The position numbers were made by a program, and so were the translations under genes. Positions 5,966 through 63,847 of a stretch of 64,000 nucleotides of DNA are shown here, in pieces. This DNA comes from an uncultured Planctomycetaceae bacterium (GTDB taxonomy: Bacteria; Planctomycetota; Planctomycetia; Isosphaerales; Isosphaeraceae): positions 4,960,001-5,024,000 of the forward strand of contig CAWIAD010000002.1 in NCBI GenBank assembly GCA_963833985.1, given 5' to 3'. Below the pieces are notes generated by a model that saw only the letters and a list, made by a program, of their open reading frames with translations, had not been told where the DNA came from and did not search any database. How positions within the stretch are numbered: the first letter of the stretch is position 1; each line of letters opens with the position of its first letter.

Positions 5966-5994
5966 AAGCTACCCAATTCCACCGCCCGAGTCAA
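5966..5994 (-). promoter_or_regulatory. Putative sigma70 promoter of the transposase
   Basis: TTGACT (5989-5994), 17-nt spacer, TAGCTT (5966-5971) on the minus strand. Confidence 0.6.
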
Positions 5995-6044
5995 GGCTGC
6001 GTTGCATGTCCTTTTTTTCTTTTTTCTTCCTTTTTTTCTTTTCC
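5993..6044 (+). repeat. Element-end motif AAGGCTGCGTTGCATGTCC plus 33-nt pure pyrimidine tract
   Basis: 17/19 identical to 63813-63831; the tract at 6012-6044 contains only C and T. Confidence 0.75.
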
Positions 6045-6236
6045 GACCGGCGCATGGCGTTTGACCGACTCGCCTCTTCGGCAAGAACTTCCATCAGCCT
6101 CTAGGATCGATCTGCGTGGTTTTATAGAATGCATCGTGGTCCTCTCAAGGATTCGGTCCTTGATCTCGGGTTCGTGAATCAGCGACGTGCACTCCGCGCG
6201 GCGGTTGCCGGCGGGCGTGCCGCGATGGGGCTGCGC

Positions 6237-7067
6237 ATGCTGGCCAAGCGGATCATCCCTTGCCTTGACGTGAACCACGGTCGAGTGGTCAAGGGCACCA
6301 ATTTTTTGAATCTCCGCGATGCCGGCGACCCGGTAGAAGTGGCGGCCCGGTACGACGCGGAGGGGGCCGACGAGCTCGTTTTCCTGGATATCACCGCCAG
6401 CCACGAGGAGCGGGCGATCCTCTGGGACGTGGTCCGGCGCACGGCCGAGGTTTGCTTCATGCCGCTGACGGTGGGTGGAGGAATTCGCAGCCTGGACGAC
6501 ATCCGGGCACTTTTGAAAGCGGGCGCCGACAAGGTGTCAATCAACTCCGCCGCCGTTCGCGACCCGGAACTCGTGCACCGCGCCGCGCGCAGGTTCGGCA
6601 GCCAGTGCATTGTGGTGAACATTGACCCCAAGCGCGTGCTGCGCGACGGCCGGGAGGTCTGGGAGGTGCACATCAACGGCGGCCGTGTGCCGACGGGCCG
6701 GGAAGCCGTGGCCTGGGCTCGCGACGTGGAGCAACTGGGAGCCGGGGAGATCGTACTCACGAGCATGGACGCCGACGGCACGAAGAACGGTTACGATCTG
6801 GCAATGACACGCGCCGTGGTCGATGCGGTGGAAGTGCCGGTGGTGGCCTCCGGCGGGGCCGGCCAGCCCGAGCATCTCCGCGCTGCGCTGGTCGAGGGGG
6901 GGGCGAGTGCGGCCCTGGCGGCCAGCATCTTCCACTATCGCGAGTACTCCATCGCTGCCACCAAGGATTACCTGGCCCGTCACGGTGTGCCGGTGCGCCA
7001 GGTTTTTCCCGCTGACGGCGGCTCGACCCCGCCGGGCGGCAAGCTCTCGACCGCCCGGACCGGGTGA
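6237..7067 (+). CDS. hisF: Imidazole glycerol phosphate synthase cyclase subunit
   Basis: [52 protein letters not shown] and ASGGAG. Confidence 0.97.
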
Positions 7068-7175
7068 TGGATGATCCCACGGACTCTCGACCAGGAACGC
7101 CGATCCACGAACCGTAGCGAGCTGCCCGCAACCCTCATTGAATTTCATCCGCCATTCGTTCCAGGAGTGCAGACC

Positions 7176-8327
7176 ATGTCCACCGCGATCGAGGCTCCGA
7201 TCGAGAGCATTGCCAACGAGCCCGAGGCCAACAAGCTGTTCCGGATGGTGATGAAGTACAAGGGGTCGGACCTGCACCTGAAGGTCGGCTTCCCGCCGTC
7301 CATGCGGCTGGCCGGGGTCTTGCGGCAGATGCAGCTTCCGAACCTCACCACGGCCGACATGGAGCGGCTGATGTACCCGCTGCTCTCGCCACGCCAGCGC
7401 GGGATTCTTGACGAGGAAGGCGGTGTCGACTTCGCGCACATCGTTTACGACGGCGAGCTGGAGACCCGGTTCCGCGTCAACCTGTTCAAGCAGCGCGGGC
7501 GGTTGAGCCTGGTGGCCCGCCGTGTGAACAACCAGATTCCCAGCTTCGAGGACCTGCACCTGCCGGCCGTGCTCGCCGAGATCACCCAGTACGACCAGGG
7601 GATCATCATCCTCGCGGGCGTGACCGGGTCCGGCAAGAGCACGACGATCGCCTCGATGCTCCAGTACATGAACGAGCGCGAGCGGCTCCATATCGTGACC
7701 ATCGAGGACCCGATCGAGTACACCTTCAAGGACGACAAGTCGATCATCAACCAGCGCGAGGTGGGCATCGACGTCATCGACTGGGACGTGGCGCTCAAGC
7801 ACGCGGTGCGGCAAGACCCGGACGTGATCCTGGTGGGTGAGATGCGCGACCGCGAGACCTTCAGCGCGGCCATGCACGCCGCCGAGACCGGCCACCTGGT
7901 CTTCGGCACCATCCATGCTGGCACGGCCCCGTCGACCATCGGCCGGTTGCTTGACCTCTTCCCGCGTGATATGCACTCGTCGCTGCGGCAGTCGCTGGCG
8001 TTCAACCTCAAGGCCATCATCGCCCAGAAGCTGCTCCCGACCACCAAGGAGCTGGCCGCCAAGGGGACGACGCGTGTGCCGACCAACGAGATCATGCGTG
8101 TCAACCCGACGGTCAAGAAGCTGATCCTCAACGAGGAGGACAACAAGCTGGGCGACGCCATCCGGATCGGCAAGGAAGAAGGCATGATGGACTTCACCGA
8201 GAGCTTGCGGCAGCTCGTGGTCGCCGAGAAAATCGAGCGTGGAGTCGCCTTCGAGGTCGCTCCCAGCCCCGAGTCTTTGAAAATGGCGCTGAAGGGGATT
8301 ACGATCGCTCAACCGGGTATTCTGTAA
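7176..8327 (+). CDS. pilT: PilT/PilU-family type IV pilus ATPase
   Basis: SDLHLK, RFRVN, Walker A GVTGSGKST, TIEDPIE, RQDPDVILVGEMRD and AETGHLVFGTIH. AGGAG RBS. Confidence 0.88.
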   Translation: MSTAIEAPIESIANEPEANKLFRMVMKYKGSDLHLKVGFPPSMRLAGVLRQMQLPNLTTADMERLMYPLLSPRQRGILDEEGGVDFAHIVYDGELETRFRVNLFKQRGRLSLVARRVNNQIPSFEDLHLPAVLAEITQYDQGIIILAGVTGSGKSTTIASMLQYMNERERLHIVTIEDPIEYTFKDDKSIINQREVGIDVIDWDVALKHAVRQDPDVILVGEMRDRETFSAAMHAAETGHLVFGTIHAGTAPSTIGRLLDLFPRDMHSSLRQSLAFNLKAIIAQKLLPTTKELAAKGTTRVPTNEIMRVNPTVKKLILNEEDNKLGDAIRIGKEEGMMDFTESLRQLVVAEKIERGVAFEVAPSPESLKMALKGITIAQPGIL

Positions 8328-8460
8328 GATCAGGTTTCGAAGGAGCAAGGCGAGGCCCCGGCGACGCCAGGCCGGCGGATTTTGCTGGTGCGTTCTTGCC
8401 GTCGCCTGCGCTTGCCGACGAACTGGGCCAGAGACCGAGAGTTCCAAGAAAGGTTGGCTG

Positions 8461-10208
8461 ATGACTCGCCCGCTCGTGGTGCTCGCGACATTTTTTCTCG
8501 TGACCCTGGGCGCCGCCGCCGGCGCCGAAGCCGCGGAATGGCTTGCCCCGGTGCTGGCCCAGGCGCCCTCGATCGTGCGCGGACCTGGCTTTTATCTGAA
8601 CATTTACAAGCTGGCGCCGGTCCTGATCATCTTCCTGCTCTGGACCTGGACCACGGACTGGGTCGAGCATGACACCAAGGAGCTGAACAATGTCAGGTTC
8701 GCCCTCTGGAACAGCGTGGTCTTCTTCTCGGGCGTTCTGGGACTGGTGCTCATCTTCGCCATTCCCATCTACCCGCTGAGCCTGGTCCTGCTCTTGCTGG
8801 CCTACTTCGTGCCGATTCTCACGTACTCCTATGTCCGGAACCAGACGGTTCCCGACGAGCAAAAGGTGCTCACTCCGTATCACCTGGGTGAGGTGGTCAA
8901 CAGCATCTTGCTGTCGCTGGGCATCCGGCCCATGTTCAACAAGAACGTGAGCATGGTCGATCGGGCCGGTCCGCCGATCACGTTCGTGGGCAAGAGCGCC
9001 GGCATGGTCAAGGAAGATCCCAACCGCGTGCACCAGGCCGAGGAATCGCGATCCTTCATGGCGGCCAAGGAGCTGGTCTACGACGCGGTCCTCCGCCGCG
9101 CGACGGATATCCACCTGGAGCCGACCACCGAGCAGCTCTCGGTGCGGTACCGCATCGACGGCATTTTGCACGCCGCCGAGCCCTTCGACCGGCCCACGGG
9201 CGACGCGGTGATCAACGTCTTCAAGGTGCTCTCGGCGATGGACATCTCCGAGAAGCGAAAGCCGCAAGACGGCTCCTTCGGCGCCAAGCTTCAGGCCCGC
9301 GATCTCGATTTCCGCGTGGCCACATCGGGATCCAAGGCCGGGGAAAAGCTGGTGATGCGTATCCTCGACAACTCGGGGTCCATCACCAAGCTGGAAGACC
9401 TGGGCATGCGCCCAAGTTCATCGAACAGGTGCGCGGGATGGTCACGCAGCCGCATGGCATGTTCCTCTGCTGCGGGCCCACGGGGTCAGGCAAATCCACC
9501 ACCCTGTACGCGTCGCTCCGGGAAATCGACCGCTACCAGCGCAACATCATCACGGTCGAGGACCCCATCGAATACCACCTCGACAACATCACCCAGATGG
9601 AGGTCAACACCAAGGCGGGCCAGACCTTCGCCACGTCGCTGCGGTCGATCCTGCGGCAAGACCCCGACGTGATCATGATTGGTGAGATCCGCGACCAGGA
9701 GACCGCGACCATTGCCTGCCAGGCCGCCAACACCGGGCACATGGTCTTCTCCACGGTCCACTCCAACGACGCCGTGACGGCCCTGTTCCGGCTGCTTGAT
9801 CTGGGGGTGGAACCCTTCATGATCTCGTCGGCTCTTTCCGCGGTGCTCGGCCAGCGGCTGGTACGCTTGCTCTGCGAGGCCTGCAAGGAGCCGTACAAGC
9901 CCAAGCCTGAATTCCTCAAGAAGGCCAACCTGCCGGTGGAGAAAGTCGACGTCTTCTACCGCCGGCCCGAGAACCCCGAACAGGTCTGCCAGCAATGCGG
10001 AGGAACGGGCTACTTCGGACGCACCGGCATCTATGAACTGCTCGTGATCACCGAGCCCTTGCGCGAGATGCTCCGCGAGAACCCTTCGATCAACAAGATC
10101 AAGGCGGAAGCCCGCAAGAATGGGATGATCTATCTTCAGGAGGACGGTCTGCGCCAGGTGATCCAGGGGCGCACGTCCATCGAAGAATTGCTCCGCGTCG
10201 TGAAATGA
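8461..10208 (+). CDS. GspE/PilB-family ATPase with an N-terminal transmembrane region (one frameshift near 9410)
   Basis: ORF 8461-9672 has TM helices, TDIHLEP, RYRIDG and PQDG. ORF 9429-10208 has GPTGSGKSTT, VEDPIE, LRQDPD, two CxxC motifs and GRTGIYE. Adding one base at ATGCGCCC(.)AAG joins them. Confidence 0.9.
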
Positions 10209-10280
10209 GCCAGCCGGACGGACGAGGAGCCTCACGCAGCAGGCGGCGACATCCTTTTCAACATCAAAGAGAGCCGATTC

Positions 10281-11015
10281 ATGGCCGTACCAAAAGTTGT
10301 CATCGACCTGGTCATCAGCTTCCTGATCCTGCTCATGACCTACGCTCTTGCCAGCGAGGGGCTCTGGGGCGCTGCGCTCATGTTCTTCAACGTCGTCTTC
10401 GCCGGCCTGATCGCGTTCAACTGCTACGAGCCGCTGGCGAAGCTCATCGACAGCACGGGCATTGGCTGGGGATTCTCCGACACCCTCTCCATGATGGCCA
10501 TCTTCTGCGTCACGGTGATGCTCCTGCGCATGACCACCGAGAGCCTGGCCCCCGCCATGGTGCGGTTCCCCACTCCCATCTATCACGCCGGACGGCTGTT
10601 CTTCGCACTGGCCACCTCGCTGGTCACCATGTCCATCCTGATCCTGGCATTCCACGCCGCGCCGGTGCACAAGCGAATCTTCGGGGCCATCGATTACAAG
10701 TACAACCCGCCGTTCGGCATGGGCTTGGATCACAAGTGGCTGGGCTTCTTTCAGTACACCTCCGGCCAGATCTTCGCGCGGTACGGATCGGGAAGCCGCG
10801 ATCCCTACGGCGAATATGGCCGCAGTGGTACCCAGCGAATCCCCGTCCGCGTGTTCGATCCGCGCGCGACCTGGCTGCTCAATCACCAGGAGGTCCGGCC
10901 CTACGGAGAGGGCCCGATCATGAGCGAATCGGGCGGCGAAAGCGGTGAGGCGGCCGGATCCACGAGCGCCTCCGGGAGCTCAGGCGGGCGCGCCGGTCCG
11001 CGCAGACCCGGGTAA
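10281..11015 (+). CDS. CvpA (colicin V production) family membrane protein
   Basis: Four hydrophobic helices; EGLWGAA and AFNCYEPLA pattern of the CvpA-like family. Confidence 0.65.
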   Translation: MAVPKVVIDLVISFLILLMTYALASEGLWGAALMFFNVVFAGLIAFNCYEPLAKLIDSTGIGWGFSDTLSMMAIFCVTVMLLRMTTESLAPAMVRFPTPIYHAGRLFFALATSLVTMSILILAFHAAPVHKRIFGAIDYKYNPPFGMGLDHKWLGFFQYTSGQIFARYGSGSRDPYGEYGRSGTQRIPVRVFDPRATWLLNHQEVRPYGEGPIMSESGGESGEAAGSTSASGSSGGRAGPRRPG

Positions 11016-11061
11016 GCAAGCCTGCCCACCCAGGGCCGCCAGGCCAGCCTCCCGGCTCGTT

Positions 11062-11616
11062 TCATCTCAGCGGATGCTGGGCGGCAGCCGTGCTCTGGGC
11101 TAGCGATCGCGATTCCACCAGCTCCAGCCGCGTGCTGGCTACCGTGCCGATCGACTGCTGGAGGATCCGGTAAATGACAAGCTGGCTGGTCGAGGTCTCG
11201 AACACGTAGAGCGGCGCCCAGCCCGCACTGTAGGCACCGAGCGCACCGGTCGACATCAAGAAATGAGGCTTCGGTCCGTTATCCAGATCGAGCTTGAAGT
11301 CAGCGGCCAGGTCGCGCTCGGCGAATGTGCCCAGGTATCGCGAGGTTCCCACCGTGCCGTGCAGCGAAGGGATCGTCCCGAGCAGCCGTCCGGCCTTATA
11401 ATCGAGGATGTAGATGGCCTCGAGGGGAATCTGCACCTTGCTCCCCTGATCGTAATGGATCATCACCGGTCCCGTGACCACGATCGACTCACCGGAACGG
11501 TCGCCACCGCCAGCCAGGATGGGCGCCGGGCGGACGCTTGCGGCCGCCCAACCGAATGCCACGCCCAGGCCAAGCAGTGCCACGCCCGGGATGCCACGAA
11601 GATGCGACAGCACCAT
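11062..11616 (-). CDS. Hypothetical exported protein
   Basis: 184-aa ORF with an N-terminal hydrophobic signal and a beta-rich body. Confidence 0.7.
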   Translation of the reverse strand: MVLSHLRGIPGVALLGLGVAFGWAAASVRPAPILAGGGDRSGESIVVTGPVMIHYDQGSKVQIPLEAIYILDYKAGRLLGTIPSLHGTVGTSRYLGTFAERDLAADFKLDLDNGPKPHFLMSTGALGAYSAGWAPLYVFETSTSQLVIYRILQQSIGTVASTRLELVESRSLAQSTAAAQHPLR

Positions 11617-11741
11617 GAATCACCAGGTCCTTTCACTCGCCTCTCGGAACACAGCCCGAGCAGTCCGCCTGATCGCGGAGGGCATTGTGCGGCGGATCGC
11701 CTCTGGAGTCCAGACCAAGCACGCCATGCGAGGATGATTCC

Positions 11742-13304
11742 ATGCAAGTCTTCACCTGGACCGTCGGCATTTGCTTGCTGGCTCAGATTCCTCCCCCGGA
11801 TACAGGTCCGGGTGTCGCGGTCACGCTGAAGCACGCCCAGCGCGTCATCGAGGAGCGAGAAGCCAGTTCCCTGCGGAAGCTTGCGGATTCTCTGACCGGG
11901 AAAGACGCGGCCCAGGCACGCCTGGAGATCCAGCGACTGCTGCCGAGACCGCGGCAGGAAAACGGGCCCGACCGGATCATGCCCTTGCCTGAGGTGGTGG
12001 CCCGTACTTCCCGAAGCGGGCTGGCCAGTGTCTCTCCCAGGACGGGTAATCCCGCCGCAAGAGGCTCGGGAGATGCCTGGCGCGCGGAACTGGAGCGGAT
12101 CCGATCCAGGGCCGCGTCCGAGCTGTTCGAGGTGGCCAACCGAGCCGCCACAAGCCGACCGCCCGAATATGCCCGGGCCGCGTTCTGCCTCCGCGCGGTG
12201 CTGGACCGGCAGCCGGATCATGCCGCCGCGCGCAGGCTGCTGGGCTATATCCCCCACGATGGCGGCTGGGCGCGGCCGTTCGCCGCCCGCCAGCTCAAGG
12301 AAGGCAACGTGAATCACCTCGTTTTCGGCTGGGTGCCGAAAGACTGGGGCGAGCATCTGGACCGGGGCGAGCTGCCGTACATGACCGCCCGTGGTCAGAA
12401 GCCGCGCTGGCTGCCCGCGGAGGAGGCCGACCGGCTCCGCGCGAACTGGAAGAACCCCTGGCAGATCTCCACGGAGCACTTCGAGATCCAGACCGATGTT
12501 CCGCTCAGCGAAGGGATCGAGTTCGCCCGCAGGCTGGAGGCCTTCTACGACGTGTTCTTCACGCAGCTTGCCGACCTCGTGGGCGAGAACCTGCCCCTGG
12601 CCCGCCGCTTCCGCTCACCCACGACGAGCGCTGAGGCGACCTACCGTCCGCATCGAGTGCTCTATTTTGGGACGAGGGACGAATACCTGGAGCATCTCCA
12701 GCCCCTGACGACGGACGACATCACGGAAAGCCTGGGGTACTACTCGCCGGCGAAAGCGGGCAAGGGAAACCGGGCGGCCACCTACTTCTTCCGCGACGCC
12801 GGCGGCCAGCTCCCGGTCACCGCAACGCTCTACCATGAAGTCTCGCACCAGCTTCTGTTCGAGACGGCCGGCCCCAACGCCTTCACCAGGAACTACAGCG
12901 GCTACTGGGTCTTCGAGGGGCTGGGAACCTACTTCGAAACGGCCACGCCCCAGTCCGACGGCTCTCTGGAAATCGGCGGCTTCGTGGGCGAGCGGCTGGC
13001 CGCGGCCCAGCAGTCGCTCGCCGCAGGCCGTTTCTTGCCCCTGGACCCATTCCTGCGCCTTGACAAGCCTGGGTTCGAGTCCCGCGAGCGGATCCACACG
13101 AACTACCAGCAGGCCATGGCGCTCGCGGTCTTCCTGATGCAGTGGCACGACGCGGTCTACCGAGAGCCGTTCCTGGACTTCGTGCACGACGCCTACCGCG
13201 GCCGGATCAAGCGGACGACCGGGCGCTCGCTGGAAGACCGGATCGGCGAACCCGTCCCGGCCCTGGACGCACGCTTCCGCGCGTTCGTCGCCCGCGGCGG
13301 ATAA
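11742..13304 (+). CDS. DUF1570-like zinc peptidase domain protein
   Basis: Signal peptide, TEHFEIQTD, HExxH motif (YHEVSHQL) and WVFEGLGTYFE. Confidence 0.8.
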   Translation: MQVFTWTVGICLLAQIPPPDTGPGVAVTLKHAQRVIEEREASSLRKLADSLTGKDAAQARLEIQRLLPRPRQENGPDRIMPLPEVVARTSRSGLASVSPRTGNPAARGSGDAWRAELERIRSRAASELFEVANRAATSRPPEYARAAFCLRAVLDRQPDHAAARRLLGYIPHDGGWARPFAARQLKEGNVNHLVFGWVPKDWGEHLDRGELPYMTARGQKPRWLPAEEADRLRANWKNPWQISTEHFEIQTDVPLSEGIEFARRLEAFYDVFFTQLADLVGENLPLARRFRSPTTSAEATYRPHRVLYFGTRDEYLEHLQPLTTDDITESLGYYSPAKAGKGNRAATYFFRDAGGQLPVTATLYHEVSHQLLFETAGPNAFTRNYSGYWVFEGLGTYFETATPQSDGSLEIGGFVGERLAAAQQSLAAGRFLPLDPFLRLDKPGFESRERIHTNYQQAMALAVFLMQWHDAVYREPFLDFVHDAYRGRIKRTTGRSLEDRIGEPVPALDARFRAFVARGG

Positions 13305-13329
13305 GGTTCGACTGCCGCGGGCTGCGCGA

Positions 13330-13572
13330 CTATTCGCCGACGTAAGGCAGGAGAGCCATGAACCGGGCGCGCTTCACCGCGGCACTCGAGGCGCGCTGAA
13401 ACGCCGCGCAGTTTCCGCTCCGCTTGCGGGAGAACATCTTGCTCTGGTTGGTGCACAGCTTCTTCAGCAGACCGATGTCCTTGTAGTCAACATAGGCAGG
13501 CCGCGGACACCCTTCACGCGTGCAGAACCGGCATCGATTCTTGCGGTTGCGACCAAACTTCTTGCGAGGCAT
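13330..13572 (-). CDS. rpsR: 30S ribosomal protein S18 (Cys-containing, zinc-binding type)
   Basis: CRFC, VDYKD, RKRSGNCA and QR...AVKRARFMALLPY. Confidence 0.97.
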   Translation of the reverse strand: MPRKKFGRNRKNRCRFCTREGCPRPAYVDYKDIGLLKKLCTNQSKMFSRKRSGNCAAFQRASSAAVKRARFMALLPYVGE

Positions 13573-13971
13573 AAACCCGTTGTCCTCAAGTCATTTCCGA
13601 AACAGTCCAGTCGCGGGCGGAACCAGTTGCCGCCCTGCGGCTGGAGGAAAACCAATTCAGGGGGAATCTCACAAGATATTCTGAGCGGCGTTCCCAGTCA
13701 AGTTGTTGCAAGCGTCTCCGCTTGAAACCAGCCCTGCCGAAGACGGCCCTTCGACGTCGCCCGGCTGGAACGTAAAACCCATCCTGAAGTGACTCTTCAG
13801 CTTTCACGTTGCACTGGCCGGGGCCGCATGCCTGGGAGGCCATCACCGCGCAGGCGCAAGGCCGCCAGGTGGCACGACGCCGAAATCAGCGTCGGCAACG
13901 CCCTGACGGCCTGTTTACCCGCAAGGGAATCCGCGACCAGACTCAGCTGATGCAGGCGTCACCGGCGGCGT

Positions 13972-15030: not shown

Positions 15031-15137
15031 CGCAGTGCCTCCAAAGAGAAAGACTCCAGTCGCGGCAACGAACCTTCGGAATGATCGTTCGCTCAAGGGA
15101 GATGTTGTGGTGAAGGCCTGGCAGTGACACGCCCGCG

Positions 15138-15860: not shown

Positions 15861-16095
15861 CTGAGATTCTCCTTCGTCATCGCAGGCTGGACCGAGCGCG
15901 AACGCTCGGCCAGTTCCACCCGGTGCCGTGACATGGTATCGTTGCATCCACCGAGCAATTCCAGTGCCAGCCACGATCGAACGGTTGTCTGTCCAGAACC
16001 GCGATTCTGCCTGCGCGGCACCGTGCTTGGCCGGATGAACATGAGAGCTCTGTGAGTCATGTCCCGGGTCTTCCACCGGTCGAGGCAAGACGCTC

Positions 16096-17099: not shown

Positions 17100-17110
17100 G
17101 GACTGTTGTC

Positions 17111-47915: not shown

Positions 47916-47939
47916 CGCTGGCGGGCTGAAAAAATGGGC

Positions 47940-52026: not shown

Positions 52027-52318
52027 TCAATGGTTCTCGGCGGCCAGCAGCCGTTTCAGCAGCCCCGGGTTCACAACACCTCGAAACCGCACCTTGCCGT
52101 TGACCGCGACCACCGGAACCTCGTGTCCATACCGGGCCGCCAGATCCGGATCGGCGTCGACGTCGACCTGTGTGATCTGAAACCCCTGGTCCCGCCGATG
52201 GTCCCTGAGCAGGTCGATCGCCTTGTGGCAACAGCAGCATTCGGCCCGCGTGTAAACGGTGAACATCAGGTGCGCAGCGCCCGCGGGGACGCAGAATCCG
52301 AGCAAGCAGTGATGTCAT
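52027..52318 (-). CDS. Glutaredoxin-like (DUF836-type) protein (frameshift near 52282)
   Basis: YTRAECCCCH..DVDADPDL..RYG..VPVV..NGK.RFRG; GGAG RBS before the ATG at 52318. Confidence 0.8.
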
Positions 52319-52364
52319 GGCAAGCTCCATGCCCCTCCGGCTAATGAGCGGAACCGGGACTGTT

Positions 52365-54457: not shown

Positions 54458-54809
54458 GGGAAGCGGCCTCCAGTTCAGGGACTCTCTTGGCGACCGATCT
54501 GATTATAGGCGACGAGCCGTTGGCTTCCCACCGCGAAGCCTCGCCCTTGCGGCCGCATCGGGTTCGAGCATTCCCGGTAAACCGCGGCTCGTACGTCATC
54601 CTCAGGTCCGCCGCACGCGTATGGCACGAGCGATTGACCTCATCGTGGCGGATGGCCGGAGCTGGATGGTCGTGTTCCGGCGCATGGGTCAGCGCTTCCC
54701 GTGGTCAAGATGAGTGGGAGAGGCTTTCCCGCCAGGTGGACATGGGAGCCCGGGCGCGGCATCCTGAATTCACGACAGGCCCCGAAGGCAATTACCTGAG
54801 AGGACTCTC

Positions 54810-57274
54810 ATGCCTGAGAAACCGCCAGGGCCGGAGAAACCGCCGGCAAGCGACCGCATTCGTGATGAACTGAGCAAGGCGCTCGACCAGATCGACCGGC
54901 CCGGCACGTTCTGCACGAGCGGTACGCTGCCGGTCGTGCTGCCGGGGCTGGAGGTCAAGGGAATGGGAGCTCTCGGACTGCCGCTCGCGCGCACAGGCCG
55001 AGGAGCTCAAGGCGATGTGCGAGCAAGCACCGTACGGCAAGGGCGAGAAAACCCTGGTGGATACCAGCGTGCGCAGGGTCTGGCGGTTGAGTCCAGGCCG
55101 GTTTTCGCTGACCAACCCCGACTGGCAGCGCCTGCTTGATGAGACGTTGAAGACAGTTCAGATAAACCTGGGACTGGAGCGCCAGAAGCTGGAGGGCCAG
55201 CTTCATGAGCTGTTGCTCTACGAGCAAGGAAGTTTCTTCCTGCCGCACCGCGATGGCGAAAAGCTCGATCGCATGGTCGCGACGCTGGTCGTCATTCTTC
55301 CCTCGGTCTACGAAGGCGGGGAGCTCATCGTCCGGCACGAGGGCCAGGTGGCCACGGTCGACTTCTCGGACGTGAACGACCGCGCCTTCCGGACTCACTT
55401 TGCGGCCTTCTACGCCGATTGCGAGCACGAGATCCGCCCGCTGATGAGGGGGTACCGCCTCTGCCTGGTGTACAACCTCACGCTGGCCAGGTCGAAAAAA
55501 CCGATCAGCGCGCCGCGACCGGCAGAACACATCGAGCGCATCGTACCCTTGCTCCGTGAGTGGTCCCGACACGATGAGGCCCGCAAGCTGGTGGTCACGC
55601 TTGATCACGAGTACACGAAGGATGGTCTGACGTGGGACAAGCTCAAGGGCGTCGATCGGGCCAAGGCCCATGTGCTCGGCGCAGCGGCGCGGCAGTCGGA
55701 TTGCAAGGCATACCTCGCACTGCTGACCCTGTGGGAATCTGGCTCGGCAGTTGACGACGGCTACGAATACGGATATCGCAGCCGTCGTCGCTGGCAATAC
55801 GACGAGGATGAGGATGAGGACGCTGGCGGAGGCACACACGAGATGGACGAGGTCTTCGAATCGAGCCTCACCGCCAAGCAGTGGAACGACATGGAAGGCC
55901 GGCCCATACCGATCCCGTCGCTCCGCATCGACGAGGACGAACTCCTGGACCCGAGCGCCGTCAGGGACGTGGAGCCGGAAGAGCAGTTCGAGGGTTACAC
56001 GGGCAACGCGGGGATGACGCTCGAGCGCTGGTATCGCCATGCAGCGGTCATCCTCTGGCCGGAGCGCAAACACTTTGAAGTCCTTTGTGATGGCAATGGA
56101 CGGCAGGTAGTACCCCTGCTCAAGCAGATGGTGGACCAATGGAAGAAAGCCGGCCCGAGGAATGCACCCGCACAGAAGGAGCAATGTCTCGCGCTGGCCA
56201 GCGCAATCCTCAAGACCTGGCCAGAGAGCCTTGACCGATACACACACGGATACGGTGACCATTCCAGGCCTGAGCAGGAAAGTGACAACCTGCTGCGCCT
56301 GCTCGAGATCCTTGGCGATGAGCAACTCATCGCCCGCTATGTCACCGATGTCCTGAGCAAGGATCCCGCGGCCGACCCAGGGAAGTCGCTGGTGAGCGTG
56401 TGCGCAAAACATGGCTGGGAAGGCTTCCGGCCACAGCTCGAAGCGCTCCTTCAAAGCACGAGCGCCGGCACGGTGGAAAGGAACGTCGGATTGCTCGAGG
56501 AGATTTGCCAATCCAAGGAGCGCAAGAAGGGAGCGCCGGCCGAGTTCTGCGTATCAGCATCGAGCGCGCTGGTCTCCGCTCTGGAAACGATCGACCAGGG
56601 TAAACCCGCTCATGACTGGCGCCTGACGCACATCGACCGGGCGAAGCTCCTCACCGGACTGGTCCGGGCCCTGGTGGTGACCGGACAGTTCGAGCTGCTG
56701 GAACGCGTGCTTGCGCAGCGCGCTGGGCCTGCCGCAGAAGTACCCGCTCAAGACCGCTCATCTTCCCGCACTCATCAGCCTGGGGCCGTGGCTGAAGCAG
56801 CATCTCCAGCACCCGCCCGTGGCATTGACACGCTGGATTGCCGCCTGCCGCGGGCAGCTCCAGGATCTGACCGCGGAGGCACCGCGGGAGCCCAGCGACT
56901 TTCGCCGCACCGCCACGATCAAATGCAAGTGCGGGGACTGCACCGAACTGAAGCGTTTCCTGGAGGATCCAGACGCCCCGGCGTACCGCTTCAGCATGCG
57001 GGAAGAACGTCGTCGCCACCTCCAGGCCGAGATCTCCGAGTATCAGGCCGACCTGCATATGACCACCGATCGCAGCCGATCGCCCCACACGCTTGTCTGC
57101 ACCAAGACCACAGCGTCGTACCAGGCGGAGCGACGGACCAACGAGCAGGACCTCGAATCACTCGCGGCAGTGCGGGCCATCGAGGACAGCCTGGGGGATG
57201 CAACAACGGCAGCCACGGAGCCGGTGAAAAGGCGGCGCAAGAGTCGGCCATCGGCACCATCAGGGTCCGCATGA
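54810..57274 (+). CDS. Large 2OG-Fe(II) oxygenase domain protein (frameshifts near 54990 and 56718)
   Basis: APYGKG..TLVD..VR, HxD (PHRDGEK), HEIRPL..GYRLCLVYNL, YTGNAG and C-terminal CxCxxC. Confidence 0.8.
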
Positions 57275-57275
57275 A

Positions 57276-58541
57276 TCAGGAGAGCAGCTCCCGGATCGGC
57301 TTCCCTGCGCTCAGCTTCACCGGCCGGCCGGTGAGCGGAGCGATGTTTTCCTTGACGGGGTCGATGCCCAGGGCCTTCAGCACGGTGGCGTGAACATCCT
57401 CGACGGTCGTGGGCGAGGTGGGGGTCTTCGAGCCCTCGGGATCGGTGGCTCCCACGACGTGACCGCCCCGCAGACCGCCGCCGGCCAGAGCGAGGCTGAA
57501 CCCGGTGGGCCAGTGGTCGCGGCCGGCGAAGGGGTTGATCTTCGGCGTGCGGCCGAACTCGCCGCAGCAGAGCACCACCGTCCGCTCCAGCAACCGCCGG
57601 CGCTTCAGGTCGGCCAGGAGCGCGGCGAACGCCGGATCAAGCTGCTTGATGAGCTTGCGATGCTGCTCGTGGTTGTTGACGTGCGTATCCCAGCCGTCGA
57701 GCGTCACCTCGACGCAGCGCACGCCGGCCTCGATCAGTCGGCGGGCGGCCAGACAGCCGCGGCCAAAGGGGCTATCACCGTACTCCGCCAGCACGCCGGC
57801 CGGCTCCTGCGCCACGTCGAACGCCTTGAGCTGCTCGGACGTCATCATCACACGCGCCCGGGCCACGGTCTCGCGATGCAGGGTGGTCGACACCCGCCTG
57901 GAGCGGGTCCGGGAGAAGGCACGCTCGACGACGTCCAGGTCCTGCACACGGGCCAGCTCACGCGCGCCTTTGATGGGCGAGAGCACGTCGGGCAGGGTCT
58001 CCTTCGGATCGCCAACCAGGAATGCGTCGTATTCGCCGCCGAGGTAGCCGCCCCGGCTGGGCCAGCGGCCGGCGAGGATGGAGATGTGTCGCGGGATGTC
58101 GGTCCGGCCCACGGGCAGCTCATGGCAGCACACGGCCCCGATGGAGGGGTGGACGACCGTGGGATCGGGCCGGTAGCCCGTCTTCATCATGTAGGTCCCG
58201 CGCTCGTGGTCCCCCTCCTTGCTGACCATCGAACGGACCAGCGTGAGCGAGGCCATCTGTTCGGCCAGCCGCTCGCAGCCCTCGGCCAGTTGAATGCCCT
58301 GCACCGCCGTGGCGATCGCCTTCGTGCCGCCGGCGATGACCGTGCCGGGATGGGGATCGAAGGTCTCGAGCTGGCTCGGCCCGCCCCCCATCCACAGCAG
58401 GATCAAGGACCGGGCCGGTGCGCGGGACTGCTCGGCGTCGCGCGCCAGCAACTGCCCCAGAGGTGTCAGCCAGCTCAGACCCGCAAGGGTCAGGAAACGA
58501 CGGCGATCGAAGGCCGGAACGGATGACATTCCCATTGCCAT
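57276..58541 (-). CDS. DUF1501 domain protein (Tat signal)
   Basis: DRRRFL, WMGGGPSQLETFDP, GWDTH, EFGRTP and GRDHW. Confidence 0.92.
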   Translation of the reverse strand: MAMGMSSVPAFDRRRFLTLAGLSWLTPLGQLLARDAEQSRAPARSLILLWMGGGPSQLETFDPHPGTVIAGGTKAIATAVQGIQLAEGCERLAEQMASLTLVRSMVSKEGDHERGTYMMKTGYRPDPTVVHPSIGAVCCHELPVGRTDIPRHISILAGRWPSRGGYLGGEYDAFLVGDPKETLPDVLSPIKGARELARVQDLDVVERAFSRTRSRRVSTTLHRETVARARVMMTSEQLKAFDVAQEPAGVLAEYGDSPFGRGCLAARRLIEAGVRCVEVTLDGWDTHVNNHEQHRKLIKQLDPAFAALLADLKRRRLLERTVVLCCGEFGRTPKINPFAGRDHWPTGFSLALAGGGLRGGHVVGATDPEGSKTPTSPTTVEDVHATVLKALGIDPVKENIAPLTGRPVKLSAGKPIRELLS

Positions 58542-58572
58542 GGAGAGGTCCTCGGAGTGACTCCGGCGCGGC

Positions 58573-60183
58573 TCAGTGGTTCCAGGAAAACTCGGTCGAA
58601 TTGATCAGCGTCCAGAACAGGTCCGTCAAACGCTCTTTCCGCTCCTGGCTCTTGGTGCCGGCGAGCCGGCCCTCGAAGTGCGATCGCTCGTCGGGCGTGG
58701 GCCGGCGGGTGAGGACGGTCAGATACGCCACTTCCACGGCCTTCTGGTCGTCGGGCGCCTGCTCGGCGATCCGCCGCGAGGCATTGAAGAAGTCGTCCTT
58801 GGTCTTGTCGCGCACGAGCTGGCCGTTCATGAGCAAGAGGCGTTGCGGGATCGTGCCGCCGGCGGGGGCAAACTCGTCCTCACCCGCATCGCCGTAGCGG
58901 CGCACGAAGTCATTGCGGCCCGTGTAGGCGGCGAAACGGACGATCCAGGGCGATTGCGGGCCCAGCGTGGGGAGCGAGCCGGCCTGGAAGATCGACCCGG
59001 CCACCTGCTCGGGACGCAGCCGCGTGAGGGGAAAGCTGTCCCAGGTGTCTTCGGACTGAGCGTCGGCCTCCGACTGAGCGGTGTCGGCACTATCGAGGTG
59101 GAACAGCTCGGTCGCGGCCATGATCCGGATGAGACGGTGCAGGTCAAAGTGGTGCGCGGTGAAATCGGCCGCGAGCGTCTCGAGCACCGGCGGCAACTCG
59201 CCGGCCACGGGTATGTCGTCAATCGGGTCGACCAGGGGCCGGCCAAATACGATTGCCCAGAGCCGGTTGACCGTGGCGCGGGCCAGGTTCGGGTTGGCCG
59301 GGTCGGTGATCCAGGCGGCGAGCCGCCGGCGCGGGTTCTCGCCGCCAGGCAACAGCTCGGGACGGAACGGCACGCGCGGCTCGACCGTCGTCGCCTCCTT
59401 CGTCTTGCGGTCGAGCGGATGATAGGCGCTCTCGCCGTCGCGGACCCCGCGCAAGTTGGAGTGAACGCTGCCGAAGAAGGCGGCCAGACCGCGGAAATCG
59501 GCCTGTTTCCAGGGCTGGAACGGGTGATCGTGGCACTGGGCACAGTCCAGGCGGATGCCGAGAAAGGCGCGCGAGACCCGCGCGGCCAGGCGTTCGGGGT
59601 CGGGCAGCTCGGTCTCCTCGCTGATCGTCACGGAGATGAAGTTCGTGGCCGGATGGTCCGTCCACAATCCCTCGTCGGCCACCAGGTCGCGGACCACCGC
59701 GTCATAAGGCCGATTCTCCAAAATCGCATCGCTCAGCCAGGTGGTGAACCGGCGGCGGCGGAACTTCACGAACGGCCCGTCCTCGACGCCCACAAGCGCC
59801 CGGGCGAACCGCTCGGCCAGGTAATCGGCCGTGCGGCGGTCGCGCAGCAGGACCTCCAGCCAGCCTTCGATGCGGCCCTCCACAGCCAGCGCCTCGAACT
59901 GGCGGATCTCTTCGAGCGCAGGGATCGAGCCCGTGAGAGCCAGCGAAAGCCGGCGCATCAGGGCAAGCTCGGTGGCCGGCGGTGCGGGTCGGACGCCCTT
60001 GTCCACCCAGCGCTGCTCCAGGATCCTGTTCACCTCGACGACGACCGGCAGCCGCTCGGCCAGCGCGCCGGGCCGGCCGGACGCAGGCGGGGGAGCCGGC
60101 ACCGGTGACCGCAAGGCGCCTCGGGCCAGGGCCAGACCACCGCCCAGGACCACGCTGATGAAGATCAGGTCGCGTAATCGCAT
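58573..60183 (-). CDS. DUF1549/DUF1553 planctomycete domain protein
   Basis: RRLSLALTG, FLGIRLDCAQCHDHP, VNRLW..VFGRPL and DLFWTLINSTEF. Confidence 0.92.
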   Translation of the reverse strand: MRLRDLIFISVVLGGGLALARGALRSPVPAPPPASGRPGALAERLPVVVEVNRILEQRWVDKGVRPAPPATELALMRRLSLALTGSIPALEEIRQFEALAVEGRIEGWLEVLLRDRRTADYLAERFARALVGVEDGPFVKFRRRRFTTWLSDAILENRPYDAVVRDLVADEGLWTDHPATNFISVTISEETELPDPERLAARVSRAFLGIRLDCAQCHDHPFQPWKQADFRGLAAFFGSVHSNLRGVRDGESAYHPLDRKTKEATTVEPRVPFRPELLPGGENPRRRLAAWITDPANPNLARATVNRLWAIVFGRPLVDPIDDIPVAGELPPVLETLAADFTAHHFDLHRLIRIMAATELFHLDSADTAQSEADAQSEDTWDSFPLTRLRPEQVAGSIFQAGSLPTLGPQSPWIVRFAAYTGRNDFVRRYGDAGEDEFAPAGGTIPQRLLLMNGQLVRDKTKDDFFNASRRIAEQAPDDQKAVEVAYLTVLTRRPTPDERSHFEGRLAGTKSQERKERLTDLFWTLINSTEFSWNH

Positions 60184-60325
60184 GTCCGCCGCCTCCCCGG
60201 AACAGGTGCATCATAGCAAACTACCCAGGCTTCGTGCCTCGCGTTTCAGGAAACCGCGAAACATGCCACCTGCCCGGGCAAAGCCATCTTGAAACCCGCC
60301 CGCCAACCGGCGAGTAATAAAATGC

Positions 60326-61513
60326 ATGGACGAGACAACGGTCCTCGAACTGGCACCTCCCGAACAAGCCCGTACGGCACCGCCGGAACCGCGGCGGCGC
60401 TGGGCCGCGCGTCTGCGCTTCGACATCGGTCGCCTGGCACGGCGCTTCGGCTCGGGGCTCGAATGGCTCTTCGGGCTGGGCTGGCTGGTGGTGGGGCTCT
60501 CCGTGCTGGCCGCTTTGCCGGTTGCGCAGTTCGTCAGCCTGGGGTATTTCCTCGAATCGTCGGCTCGGGTGGCACGCACCGGCCGGCTGCGCGACGGCGT
60601 CATCGGAGTGCGCCGGGCCGCCAGGGCCGGCGGAGTCGCCCTTGGCATGGTCCTCTCCCTGGTCCCCCTCTTCCTGGTGGGCTCGTACGCGCAGACGGCC
60701 GCGCTCATCGATCCCGGCGGCGCCGTGGCGGGTCGCTGGCGGTGGATCCTTGGCATCGTGGCGGCGCTCACGTTCGTCCAGATCACCACGGCCTGCGCAC
60801 GCGGAGGACGGCTGCGGCATTTCCTCTGGCCACTGGGTATGCCTGGCTGGCTGGTGCGCGGACTGAAACAGGGAGGCCTGTACGCGCAGGCTCGCGACGG
60901 CTTCTGGGACTTCGTCGCCGCGCTGCGCCTGCCCTATTACTTCCGGCTCGGCCTGGTCGGCTTTCTCGGCACCCTGACGTGGCTGGCCCTGCCGGCGGGC
61001 CTGATCGCGGCCAGCCGCGCTTACCCGCTGCTCGGCTTTGTGGGGGCGTTGCTGCTGGCGTTCGTGGCGCCGTCCTTGCCATTTCTCCAGGTCCGCTACG
61101 CGGTCGAGGGCCGCGCCGGGGCCCTCTTTTCCCTGGGCTCGATCCGCGAGCGATTCCGCCGCGCTCCGTGGGCCTTCGCCTTCTCACTCATGGTGCTGCT
61201 ACTGGCATCAGTTCCTCTCTATCTGTTGAAGATCGAGATGATCCCGCGCGAGGCCGCATGGCTGCCGAGCTTGGTCTTCGTGGTCTTCCTGGCACCCGCT
61301 CACGTCCTGGTCGGCTGGGCGTACGCGCGCTCGTGGCGGCGCTACCGGCCGCGCCACTTCCTGGTTCGCGCCCTGGGCCGCCTGGCGATCATCCCCGTCT
61401 CGCTCTTCTACGTGCTGGTCGTCGTTCTGGCCCAGTACACCTCCTGGGGCGGCGTCTGGAGCCTCTTCGAGCAGCACGCCTTCCTGCTGCCGGTGCCGTT
61501 TTTCAGCATGTGA
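60326..61513 (+). CDS. Hypothetical multipass membrane protein
   Basis: 395-aa ORF with many TM helices, divergent from the DUF1549 gene. Confidence 0.8.
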   Translation: MDETTVLELAPPEQARTAPPEPRRRWAARLRFDIGRLARRFGSGLEWLFGLGWLVVGLSVLAALPVAQFVSLGYFLESSARVARTGRLRDGVIGVRRAARAGGVALGMVLSLVPLFLVGSYAQTAALIDPGGAVAGRWRWILGIVAALTFVQITTACARGGRLRHFLWPLGMPGWLVRGLKQGGLYAQARDGFWDFVAALRLPYYFRLGLVGFLGTLTWLALPAGLIAASRAYPLLGFVGALLLAFVAPSLPFLQVRYAVEGRAGALFSLGSIRERFRRAPWAFAFSLMVLLLASVPLYLLKIEMIPREAAWLPSLVFVVFLAPAHVLVGWAYARSWRRYRPRHFLVRALGRLAIIPVSLFYVLVVVLAQYTSWGGVWSLFEQHAFLLPVPFFSM

Positions 61514-61640
61514 TGCGCTGCCGGCCGCGGGCACTGAGTACGGCAGGCCCTTGATCGCCGTTCCCGGTTCATGCAGAATTCTTGCGTTTTCCCGGCAATC
61601 GCACAACCGCTCAACCGCCCCGGCCCAGCGAGACCATCCC

Positions 61641-62252
61641 ATGGCACAGCGCGACGATCGTATCGACGCTTACATCGCCAGGTCCGCCGAGTTCGCCCAG
61701 CCGATTCTCACGCACCTGCGGGCAATCGTCCACGAAGCTTGCCCGGACGTCGAAGAGACAATGAAGTGGAGCTTCCCCCATTTCCAGTACCAGGGAATGA
61801 TGTGCAGCATGGCGGCGTTCAAGGAGCATTGTGCCTTCAACTTCTGGAAAAGCTCACTCATCGTCGAATGGGGCGGGGAACCGGTCGAGAAGGCCATGGG
61901 CCAGTTCGGGCGTGTCACCAGGGTCGCCGACCTGCCGTCCAGGAAGGTCCTCATCAGCTACGTCAAGCAGGCCATGAAGCTCAACGAGGAAGGCGTCAAG
62001 TCTCCGACCCGGACCAAGCCCAGGGACAAGGCGCCCAGGGAAGTGATGGTCCCCGAGGACCTGGCGGCCGCCCTGGCGGCCAGCAGTGCGGCACAGGCCT
62101 CTTTCGAGAAATTCAGCCCCAGCCATCGCCGCGAATACATCGAGTGGATCACCGAGGCGAAGACCGAGGCGACACGAACCCGGCGGATCGCTCAGGCGGT
62201 GGAGTGGATGGCGGAGGGCAAGCCGCGCAACTGGAAGTACATGAACTGCTAG
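61641..62252 (+). CDS. YdeI/OmpD-associated (DUF1801) family protein
   Basis: IDAYI..FAQPIL, EETMKWSFP and FSPSHRREYIEWITEAK..TR..RI. Confidence 0.9.
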   Translation: MAQRDDRIDAYIARSAEFAQPILTHLRAIVHEACPDVEETMKWSFPHFQYQGMMCSMAAFKEHCAFNFWKSSLIVEWGGEPVEKAMGQFGRVTRVADLPSRKVLISYVKQAMKLNEEGVKSPTRTKPRDKAPREVMVPEDLAAALAASSAAQASFEKFSPSHRREYIEWITEAKTEATRTRRIAQAVEWMAEGKPRNWKYMNC

Positions 62253-62370
62253 CGCACGCCGGAAGCGTCCTCCAGACGCCCTCGTACGCAACGTGCACCA
62301 CCCGGCGGGGAGATTTGCTCGTCTTCACTCATGAGCGGTTAATTCTCCCTTCTCCCGGATCCTGGACTCG

Positions 62371-62524
62371 GGTGCGTCGAGCTTGCGACTGTGCGACGAC
62401 GCACCGACTGTGCGGTACTCGGGAAATCGGTGCGTCTTTACGACGCACCCTACATTGCTCATGGGATGGCATCGGTAGGAAGTGAAGCAGGATGCGTCGA
62501 GCCTGGACGACGCACCGACTGTGC
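62371..62524. repeat. Cluster of three REP hairpins (GTAG family)
   Basis: GGTGCGTC(G)...(C)GACGCACC stems at 62371-62405, 62429-62449 (GTAG tag on the minus strand, 62450-62453) and about 62491-62516 (GCAG tag on the plus strand). Confidence 0.8.
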
Positions 62525-62656
62525 AGGCCACGGTCTGTCCTTCCCTTTTCTTTCCCGAGTGTCGGGCCTTGCTAGTCCAATCTTTCGGCCTGATACTAAC
62601 CGAGTTGTCTCTATTCCAGGCTAGTCGGAACAGGGGTCCCCTGAGCGTGAGAGCCT

Positions 62657-63391
62657 ATGATGAAACGCGTGCTTCTGCGAGGACTTTTCGGATGGGTGGT
62701 GGTTGTCGCTCTGGTTGGGGGGTCGCTCTTCGCTCAGGGGATTCAGAGGCAAGGACCGCCCGTTCAAGACGATGAAACATCAGAATCCTTCCGTGAAAAA
62801 GTATGGCTCACGCTTCTAGACAAGGGGCTGATCGGGGGACTAGTGTTGCTCGCCGGGATATTCATTCAACGGGCTCTCGAAAGTTTTAAGAACGACCTGA
62901 ACTTGAAGAACCTCTATTCCAACTGGCGATGGGCCAGGAACGCGGCTCTTCTAGAGAAGATCGGAAACGCTGCGGCTGATCTGACGCAGAAGCTTGCCGC
63001 CGGAGTTCATGCAATGGCATGGTTGACTTGGCAAGCGAAATACAACCCGCATGCATTCTCGCAGGACCTAATCAAGGAATACGACATCGAGATGAAGGCC
63101 CTGCTTCCTTCATTCGTCGCGAGCCGTGTGCTAGTGGCCGTCGTGAGCAAGACAACGAGTAACAGGTTGAAACCACTGGTGGACGACCTCCTGGATTGGG
63201 ACAGGAAGATCGCCATCACTTGCACCAAGTTCAGTGAGTCACCCGAGGTTTGCAAGAAGGAACTAGCAGATTATCATCCGGACATTGTGAAATTTGATGA
63301 TAAGATACTGAGTGAAGTGGCTGACTTGATCGCCACCTGGCCGTCGATCGAGTCCGAGGCGCGAGCCGATGGGATGGCCGTTCGAGGATAG
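62657..63391 (+). CDS. Hypothetical membrane-anchored helical protein, visibly lower GC
   Basis: 244-aa ORF with a signal peptide and a TM helix; A/T-ending codons are much more frequent than in neighbours. Confidence 0.7.
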   Translation: MMKRVLLRGLFGWVVVVALVGGSLFAQGIQRQGPPVQDDETSESFREKVWLTLLDKGLIGGLVLLAGIFIQRALESFKNDLNLKNLYSNWRWARNAALLEKIGNAAADLTQKLAAGVHAMAWLTWQAKYNPHAFSQDLIKEYDIEMKALLPSFVASRVLVAVVSKTTSNRLKPLVDDLLDWDRKIAITCTKFSESPEVCKKELADYHPDIVKFDDKILSEVADLIATWPSIESEARADGMAVRG

Positions 63392-63573
63392 TTCCGAGGA
63401 TAAAAGCGGTTAGGCTGGATAGGACCGTGTCAGAAAGGCCAATACTAGAGTATTAAGTGAACACTCGCACCTCTCCGCTTTGCAAGCGCGCTCCACCGAG
63501 AATGACCGCCAGACAATCTTGCCCACAATCCCCAATATCGCCTTGACCCGACGGAAAAAATGAAAATAACTGT

Positions 63574-63754
63574 CTAAAGTAAGAGTCGCAGGCAGATGAG
63601 CGAGCACGCCAGTGACATCCAGCCGCGCTGGACCTCGGGCAAGCGGTCCCACCTCACCCGGAGGCGACCGTATTGATGGAGCCACGACAGCGTCCGCTCG
63701 ACGTACCAACGGGTCTTCCCCAGGCCGGTACCGTGGGGCGTCCCTCGCTGCGCC
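63574..63754 (-). pseudogene. 3' fragment of an IS5-family transposase
   Basis: RGTPHGTGLGKTRWYVERTLSWLHQYGRLRVRWDR..LACSLIC matches the IS5 C-terminal RWxVERxxxWL motif; the 5' part is absent. Confidence 0.8.
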
Positions 63755-63847
63755 AGGAAAGAAAGAAGAAGAAAGAAGGAAAGAAGGACATGCATTGCTG
63801 CCCATCTGGTGGAAGGCTGCATTGCCTGTCCCTTCCTTTCCCTTCTT
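63755..63847. mobile_element. Non-autonomous mini-element: 46-bp inverted-repeat core with purine/pyrimidine tails
   Basis: Arms at 63786-63802 and 63815-63831 (14/17 complementary) with a 12-nt spacer; purine tract 63755-63785 and pyrimidine tract 63832-63847; 17/19 match to the transposase-upstream motif. Confidence 0.7.

Follow-up and report, generated by a model that had tools for sequence, protein, structure and literature searches.

What are the four intergenic sites at which a GC-rich planctomycete genome (rich in guanine and cytosine) reaches the pentamer TGTCC and runs straight into a tail composed only of C and T? The question is raised by a stretch of 64,000 nucleotides (nt) from an uncultured Planctomycetaceae bacterium (GenBank assembly GCA_963833985.1, contig CAWIAD010000002.1, positions 4,960,001 to 5,024,000), hereafter the window, which also encodes a Y1 HUH transposase, P0001 (4886..5938, minus strand). 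A preliminary description of the window, made from the letters alone, took the sites for cleavage and joining ends of this enzyme and proposed that the tails grew by targeting of pyrimidine-rich DNA or by slippage. The analysis presented here indicates that the sites, of which 62536 is uncertain, are the ends of a mobile Y1 HUH element and that the tails are stacked partial copies of those ends, probably generated by a nick about 10 nt outside the motif GGACA (TGTCC on the opposite strand), extension and re-joining. Roughly one bacterial species in four carries Y1 genes resembling those of the RAYTs (transposases associated with repetitive extragenic palindromes, REPs), which makes the manner in which such genes spread and multiply repeats a matter of wide interest. 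The ends described here carry what looks like a base-resolved footprint of a nick-prime-rejoin reaction, and they name a strand, a position and a substrate for nicking.

A multicopy element with a shared end motif

All four pyrimidine runs of the preliminary description are present, TGTCC being followed by 33 pyrimidines at 6007 (plus strand), 16 at 62536 (plus), 16 at 63827 (plus) and 31 at 63790 (minus), and the 19-mers at 5993 and 63813 agree at 17 of 19 positions. Their rarity likewise stands, as only 4 of the 96 TGTCC pentamers in the window precede eight or more pyrimidines, and the four sites account for four of its six pyrimidine runs of at least 15 nt. Across the source genome (10.16 megabases, Mb; 65% GC), at least 15 pyrimidines follow TGTCC at 17 of 16,592 occurrences, against about 1.4 expected from the other 63 NRYYY pentamers (100 of 1,229,521), and TGTCC opens 11 of the 28 genomic pyrimidine runs of at least 22 nt. 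The pentamer TGTTT has a similar tail rate on fewer sites (7 of 5,027). A genome scan with the 17-mer of the preliminary description returned 11 exact matches, every one with at least 20 pyrimidines in the next 30 nt, and 30 matches when one substitution was allowed.

The transposase encoded by P0001 has 350 amino acids, the motifs H65-L-H67 and Y177-IDL-NP, and Y1_Tnp (PF01797) as its sole Pfam domain; its score of 40 bits against the NCBIfam RAYT model NF047646 falls below the cut-off of 80. Among 120 homologues, NHxH is found in 115 and Y-I/V-D/E-LNP in 112, and the HUH-to-Y spacing is 112 residues in all 107 proteins that hold both motifs. Judged by motifs, spacing, length and copy number, the protein fits TnpA-Y1 subclass 2.3. 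Copies in the genome comprise 13 that are near-full (87.5-100% identity), one with a frameshift and numerous fragments, and their upstream flanks differ. Of 8,000 database candidates scored, at least 2,770 proteins reached E ≤ 1e-10; every cluster that a protein atlas returned was of Y1_Tnp type, and a sequence search of the PDB gave no match. The closest relatives of the element come from Isosphaeraceae or Planctomycetota records, and 13 gammaproteobacterial records match at 33-36% identity over 83-87% of the query, ten of them in genera of the Alteromonadales.

On the gene strand the end motif reads GGACA(G/T/C)GCA, and it is the terminal motif of this multicopy element. Its proposed link to the HUH gene is borne out by position, since 13 of the 14 genomic copies have it 73-74 nt upstream of the start codon and, of 90 loci whose flank is long enough, 79 have it within 200 nt of the gene on the upstream side (the position counts cover the 14 source-genome copies and 79 of the 80 related loci). 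In the window, whose full copy has its left end at 5995-6044, the left-end motif GGACATGCAACGCAGCC (5995..6011, minus strand) lies 73 nt ahead of the ATG, with a TTGAC hexamer (5994-5990) immediately following it; this end has no hairpin (DNA fold z = -0.25), and the tetranucleotide GTAG is likewise absent. Of 72 loci, 45 have an inverted motif within 3 kilobases (kb) on the downstream side, most often 200-340 nt past the stop codon, and 17 have one in the same orientation. With one artefact dropped, 39 of 40 two-ended elements measure 1,289-1,767 base pairs (bp). GGACA is preceded by A in 82% of 79 left ends and 90% of 50 right ends, giving the consensus A-GGACA-B-GCA.

The expected co-occurrence of motif and enzyme was found across 31 genomes, in which the full 21-nt end pattern has 126 matches in the 11 genomes with a close transposase (~95 Mb) and 13 in the 20 without (~132 Mb), the latter at the background level set by the reversed control (14 matches with the transposase and 26 without). 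It should be noted that the pattern was drawn from such loci and that related genomes are not independent, which makes the positive side of the comparison circular and counts against resting the case on it; for these reasons only the background level in the transposase-negative genomes is a fair test. The simple pattern of TGTCC plus 15 pyrimidines gave 105 matches in the 11 enzyme-carrying genomes and 34 in the 20 without, with genome G009 (11 matches) as an exception. Two stretches from G009 and two from G011 (L127-L130) carry another family of ends, TCAGT(G/A)ATGTCC followed by a pyrimidine seed of 13 nt. The L129 stretch shows one partial duplication, and a Y1 gene of 249 amino acids lies 2.8 kb from the site in L127. 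These ends probably belong to a different Y1 group with likewise stuttering ends.

Composition of the tails

Read on the purine strand, the tails consist of head-to-tail partial copies of the end together with a short outer sequence, here termed the seed. The units start 8-12 nt outside GGACA and stop anywhere from 3 to 557 nt onward. In the 127 units that contain GGACA, the outward match spans 8-12 nt in 91 and never exceeds 17 nt, and the inward match covers 5-96 nt. When segments were free to start anywhere, the parse placed the beginning of 119 of the 140 segments starting outside GGACA at -14 to -7, with a mode of -10; the 79 of 219 segments starting inside the element, mostly 5-7-nt chance fillers with a few long units split by mutation, were set aside. 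Of 142 array units, 111 begin no more than 2 nt from the modal start, which this parser favours, and 24 begin 6-10 nt nearer the motif. At 557 nt, the longest unit begins at -12, reaches into the gene and differs from the inner copy at a single position (556 of 557 identical). The tail of the window copy (6012..6044, minus strand) resolves into a 9-nt seed (~6012-6020) and units spanning -9 to +3 and -9 to -2, with a predicted nick near 6020/6021 on the minus strand. As the preliminary description had supposed, these sites are joints, and their tails have the look of a history of repeated events. Slippage driven by microhomology, one of the two routes it had offered for tail growth, fits poorly: there is no overlap at 58 of 87 joints, where the null median is 61.

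The tails are also less uniform in composition than the window alone would indicate. The purine fraction of the seed is 0.91 in 14 source-genome ends and 0.73 in 116 others, and two distant paralogues in the source genome have the same anatomy with a different motif, GCCACCCAC, and tails of mixed composition. Pure pyrimidine tails are a trait of the source lineage and not, as first thought, a general feature. The GCCACCCAC paralogues (C2:551466-552900 and C2:2519151-2520700) are longer, with open frames of 478 and 498 amino acids and, where they match, 47-49% identity; large stacks flank them on either side. Another family of repeats, GGAGGACAGGCATTCTTGCCTGTC, has the GGACAGGCA core as well; it is palindromic, carries purine-rich stacks and is situated among GGCAGT arrays, with dozens of blast matches (examples at C1:2608988-2609046, C2:736739-737012 and C2:1151312). 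At C2:5692263-5695837, a GGACAGGC word within the coding sequence of a transposase variant has gained a seed and a stack, and looks as if it had been used as an end.

Elements in gammaproteobacterial isolates have GACACCCA-type ends. Inspection by eye identified end duplications or stacks of short units in L102, L104-L107 and L121-L124, and not clearly in L101 and L103.

Seeds, flanks and insertion sites

The seed travels with the end. When near-identical ends are found at different flanks, 28 of 39 pairs share 5-12 nt outward and never more than 12, and the 63827 end and its sister at C2:5031524 have the same 9-nt seed beside unrelated flanks. Conversely, in all nine joints listed whose flank has a second genomic copy (C2:3032794, 5692263, 1453087, 1522145, 1806798 and four inside transposase copies), that uninterrupted copy continues with other sequence and lacks the seed. 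Because the seed is common to different flanks and absent from flank copies, the functional joint lies about 10 nt beyond TGTCC, and the tail is not target DNA. The junction is thereby moved from TGTCC itself, where the preliminary description had put it, to the far edge of the carried seed, some 8-12 nt further out.

A miniature two-ended derivative is present in the window. Its 46 bp (63786..63831) consist of two end motifs in inverted orientation on either side of an 11-nt stretch (63803-63813) that is identical to transposase codons 7-10, and the DNA fold has z = -4.67 with the tails included. Outside the left motif, a seed with stacked copies (63755..63785, plus strand) is joined to a truncated gene, as had been reported, which is the remnant of a DDE_Tnp_1 transposase; outside the right motif, a seed with a partial copy (63832..63847, minus strand) has a 9-nt seed identical to that of a sister copy 7.7 kb on (C2:5031483-5031528), where the flank is different. 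Similar end doublets occur elsewhere in the genome.

Comparison of filled and empty sites offers a further view of insertion. For the 40 two-ended planctomycete elements, blastn recovered no empty sites, and the longest word shared by the two flanks follows the random distribution, giving no sign of target duplication. By tblastx, only one of 42 flank pairs was collinear; it belongs to a miniature element (C2:510432-510484) that stands in place of about 505 bp of a transposase copy. Two Pseudoalteromonas shioyasakiensis records have a gammaproteobacterial relative of the element between icd and ilvI, directly after the icd terminator and with 212 and 385 nt from icd to the gene, and the same position is empty in two other Pseudoalteromonas records. 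The filled and empty versions show no obvious duplication at a resolution of several bases (~80% identity). In the source lineage, hisF and the gene that flanks the window copy on its other side are not neighbours among the matches listed for 13 genus relatives, but the gene upstream of hisF itself varies among six relatives. A conserved block upstream of hisF (6085-6240) starts about 40 nt outside the tail and was therefore spared by the insertion.

A proposed nick, extension and re-joining model and its alternatives

A single reaction would probably account for these properties. The Y1 protein would nick the purine strand about 10 nt outside GGACA, at a point apparently set by distance from the motif and not by sequence; a host polymerase would extend the freed 3' end over a variable distance; and the 5' end held by the enzyme would be re-joined to the extended 3' end. 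The protein itself would in this way make the stacks, and the fixed 5' start and variable 3' stop are expected because a nick near -10, extension by k bases and re-joining would leave such units. If the same 5' end were passed instead to a 3'-OH at another place, the outcome would be carried seeds, insertions without target duplication, one-ended joints, deletions and miniatures such as that at 63786-63831, and nicks slipping to -2 to -4 would allow flank DNA to take the place of seeds. The pure pyrimidine tails of the source lineage would arise because its seeds are A/G-rich and would be recopied with G, GG or GGA, leaving only pyrimidines on the other strand.

Several results weigh against this reading. 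Only 43 of 158 ends parse as arrays, in a set that includes some chance motif matches and with a parser that favours the modal start. A strict parse of 34 arrays did not separate fixed starts from fixed ends (10 preferred the former and 15 the latter, with nine ties), although the fixed-end model was allowed free starts. Mean overlap at joints is slightly over the null (0.61 compared with 0.44, p = 0.053), and unit ends avoid C (6 compared with 18.7 expected; 5 compared with 9.7) and lean to A/G, such that homology of 1 nt or a second enzyme cut may be involved there. Near-identical end pairs, which are drawn from few families, share only 0-3 nt in 11 of 39 cases, so that seeds turn over as well. 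A nearby right end is found in only one of 14 source-genome copies. Structure prediction was also of little help to the case, as the transposase fold is poor (mean predicted local distance difference test score, pLDDT, of 49, from a too-uniform alignment of 27 sequences) and a Foldseek search with it returned nothing at E ≤ 0.001. Its top rows, TrwC and IS608 TnpA, are HUH proteins with E about 1 and were not taken as evidence.

The alternative that survives best retains the first nick but attributes the 3' end of each unit to a second enzyme cut at loose purine sites, or to excised single-stranded pieces that are re-inserted. The A/G bias of unit ends would suit such a cut, and TnpA-REP offers a precedent in that it cuts a dinucleotide at variable distance from its site, as described in the available text of PMC8266576 and PMC3333891. 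This version is nonetheless unlikely, since units stop at nearly every offset from -9 to +24, T and C included, and those of 3-8 nt are presumably too short to derive from excised circles.

Somewhat less likely again is a role for the transposase limited to breaking or stalling the DNA, after which host repair or replication would stack copies by repeated primer realignment, with synthesis on the TGTCC strand heading away from the element until it meets a fixed block some 10 nt past the motif. Realignment would give the same polarity, and both the small excess of joint overlap and the many low-complexity seeds of the source genome are in its favour. It is harder to reconcile with the 58 of 87 joints that have no overlap and with complex seeds (e.g., L048, L064 and L065) that stack as well as A-rich ones, and it leaves the travel of the same 5-12 nt to new flanks unexplained.

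The growth of tails through repeated insertion into pyrimidine-rich targets after a cut at TGTCC, the other route of the preliminary description, is largely refuted and very improbable. Tails do begin right after TGTCC, differ between sites and are strongly pyrimidine-rich in the source genome, and seeds can turn over between close copies (the window copy and C2:6223724 share 2 nt at 99% protein identity), but the units include pieces of the end itself, the same seeds stand beside unrelated flanks, the nine uninterrupted flank copies continue with other sequence, and tails in relatives are of mixed composition. A reading of the tails as terminators or as artefacts of assembly, with no connection to the enzyme, is equally improbable. 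Weak terminator-like calls at 62523-62538 (plus) and 63803-63786 (minus) and the potential for sequencing errors in homopolymer lengths could be cited for it. Against it, there is no terminator-like site within 5800-6300, the stacks are polar, of mixed sequence up to 557 nt and present in isolate records, and genomes lacking the enzyme have the motif only at background level; for the 62536 site alone, a terminator may be the explanation.

The nick, extension and re-joining reading may extend further. It is possible, and proposed here with reservations, that the Y1 proteins of subclass 2.3 constitute an uncatalogued type of insertion sequence in which each inverted end serves independently as a ruler-set nick site whose protein-bound 5' end can be donated to any free 3'-OH, whether of a nascent strand or of a break, without a target sequence. 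If true, one reaction would write dated stacks, move the element, stitch together unrelated DNA and capture passengers, a mode of transposition by 5'-end joining unlike DDE, IS200 or IS91 chemistry. An enzyme that joins its 5' end to any 3'-OH would also make a compact DNA-joining tool.

Other features of the window and source genome

The 3' side of the window element differs from that of the two-ended relatives. Downstream of the gene is a pair of hairpins with TCAC loops (4778..4839, minus strand) that belongs to a dispersed repeat (81 and 56 genomic matches), and no inverted right end follows the pair in the window copy. Beyond it, a passenger tract common to other genomic copies (4081..4777, minus strand) contains two GAAGCCA boxes (~4205 and ~4124) with a spacing of 81 nt and ends about 30 nt past them. 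Like most source-genome copies, the window element runs into the hairpin pair and the passenger tract to about 4081, and source-genome elements may be fused to a second, hairpin cassette family in place of a right end. Genome-wide, the hairpin repeat forms 55 clusters, of which 19 follow a transposase 3' end and 11 precede one multicopy gene (11 genomic matches to its N-terminus). Two GAA(G/C)CCA boxes about 81 nt apart come after 15 of the 55 clusters, and such boxes are present in only 3 of 79 related loci. Three transposase copies truncated at the 5' side (C1:2927575, C2:495674 and C2:4164400) run into a hairpin unit in inverted orientation, each time with the same leader of about 30 nt, which suggests a joining end belonging to the hairpin repeat itself. 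The copy at C2:3199778 ends about 250-330 nt on in a different stacked repeat, built on CTGACACTGATTT.

The remaining site of the window, 62536..62556 (plus strand), is the least certain. It is single-copy, has a 16-nt tail at the edge of a low-GC tract, and on the minus strand reads GGACAGAC, not GGACA-N-GC; it also passed the weak terminator scan. We lean towards regarding it as a real, possibly degenerate, element end. The low-GC tract (62557..63754; GC 0.52-0.60) lies between two outward tails and holds an orphan gene (62657-63391), present in none of 60 family genomes, and the 3' DDE_Tnp_1 remnant (63574-63754, minus strand). A cluster of REP-like hairpins of GTAG/CGTC type (GGTGCGTC...GACGCACC) adjoins the 62536 site at 62370-62520, and these hairpins are also found inside the 3' tract of the transposase copy at C2:4164404.

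Comparison with known systems

Comparisons with published systems follow the available portions of the cited texts. TnpA-Y1 subclass 2.3, as described by Quentin et al. (bioRxiv 10.1101/279083, PMC6006769), comprises multicopy proteins of about 325 amino acids with an HUH-to-Y distance of about 110 that are prevalent in Alteromonadales and Chromatiales. The element resembles this subclass in its long Y1 protein, its spacing of 112 where the subclass has near 110, the Y---NP motif, several copies per genome, relatives in Alteromonadales and ends without a REP hairpin (PMC6006769). The ends, the filled and empty site, the miniature derivatives and the polar stacks reported here go beyond the available description of that subclass. 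A subclass described as lacking ends or evidence of mobility thus behaves as an insertion sequence, with one-ended joints, deletions and miniature derivatives.

The TIRtrons (TIRYT; Di Nocera et al. 2013, PMC3733652) provide a close structural parallel, as they have a Y1 gene between terminal inverted repeats (TIRs) and dispersed TIR dimers. Both systems place the Y1 gene between inverted ends, and the core GGACAG resembles GGGGWSAS of the TIRtrons; the consensus in the present element is A-GGACA-B-GCA and not GGGGWSAS (PMC3733652). Inverted flanking repeats, the hallmark of the TIRtrons, are found in 45 of 72 related loci, in only one of 14 source-genome copies and not in the window copy. Quentin et al. 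place 20 of 26 TIRYT in subclass 2.1 and none in 2.3 (PMC6006769), and P0001, with Y1_Tnp alone, lacks the C-terminal helix-turn-helix of subclass 2.1 and has the spacing of subclass 2.3. The available TIRtron text makes no mention of a seed, a nick site or stacks (PMC3733652).

For the chemistry, HUH enzymes form a 5'-phosphotyrosine bond, leave a free 3'-OH able to prime or attack, and transfer the bound strand to an attacking oligonucleotide (Corneloup et al. 2021, PMC8266576). A nick-prime-rejoin model with a second cut has been proposed, with no in vivo demonstration in the available text, for the amplification of bacterial interspersed mosaic elements, BIMEs (Ton-Hoang et al. 2012, PMC3333891, Fig. 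7B). The proposed reaction resembles this TnpA-REP model in that a nick, priming from the 3'-OH and re-joining to the 5'-phosphotyrosine strand add tandem units, and in a cut distant from the recognition site (PMC3333891, PMC8266576). Unlike the present ends, REPs form hairpins with a GTAG tag and are cleaved at CT or CA, and a REPtron is not mobile as a whole (PMC3333891, PMC8266576). Here, the end is without a hairpin, the cut is apparently set by distance, units vary by single bases and the gene moves with its ends. The GTAG-tagged hairpin flanks of REPtrons and RAYTs are thus not found at the left end.

Rolling-circle HUH transposons, including IS91/ISCR, Helitrons and Replitrons, share with the element a fixed 5' end, a variable far end, capture of 3' passengers and no target duplication. 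They differ in their Rep-type enzymes and non-inverted ends; in the present element the Y1 core is related to IS200, and the two ends are inverted and alike in polarity. The Replitron part of this comparison follows the available text of PMC10288648, in which Replitron-1 carries a fuzzy flank from its parental copy. The IS200/IS605 elements, as summarised in PMC6006769, have the Y1 HUH core and the lack of target duplication in common with the element, and differ in having subterminal hairpins, guide tetranucleotides, no inverted ends, an enzyme of about 150 amino acids and a Y---Q motif.

No literature on the ends or stacks of subclass 2.3 was found, in a search that stopped short of subscription journals, ISfinder/TnCentral and supplements. 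The preliminary description had called the system undescribed, which holds for the ends and scars and does not for the protein subclass and the TIR-flanked Y1 genes, both already published. The protein subclass and gene arrangement are therefore known, and the ends and scars are apparently new. The element works like TnpA-REP in the amplification model and like the rolling-circle transposons in its one-ended products, and it is a member of neither.

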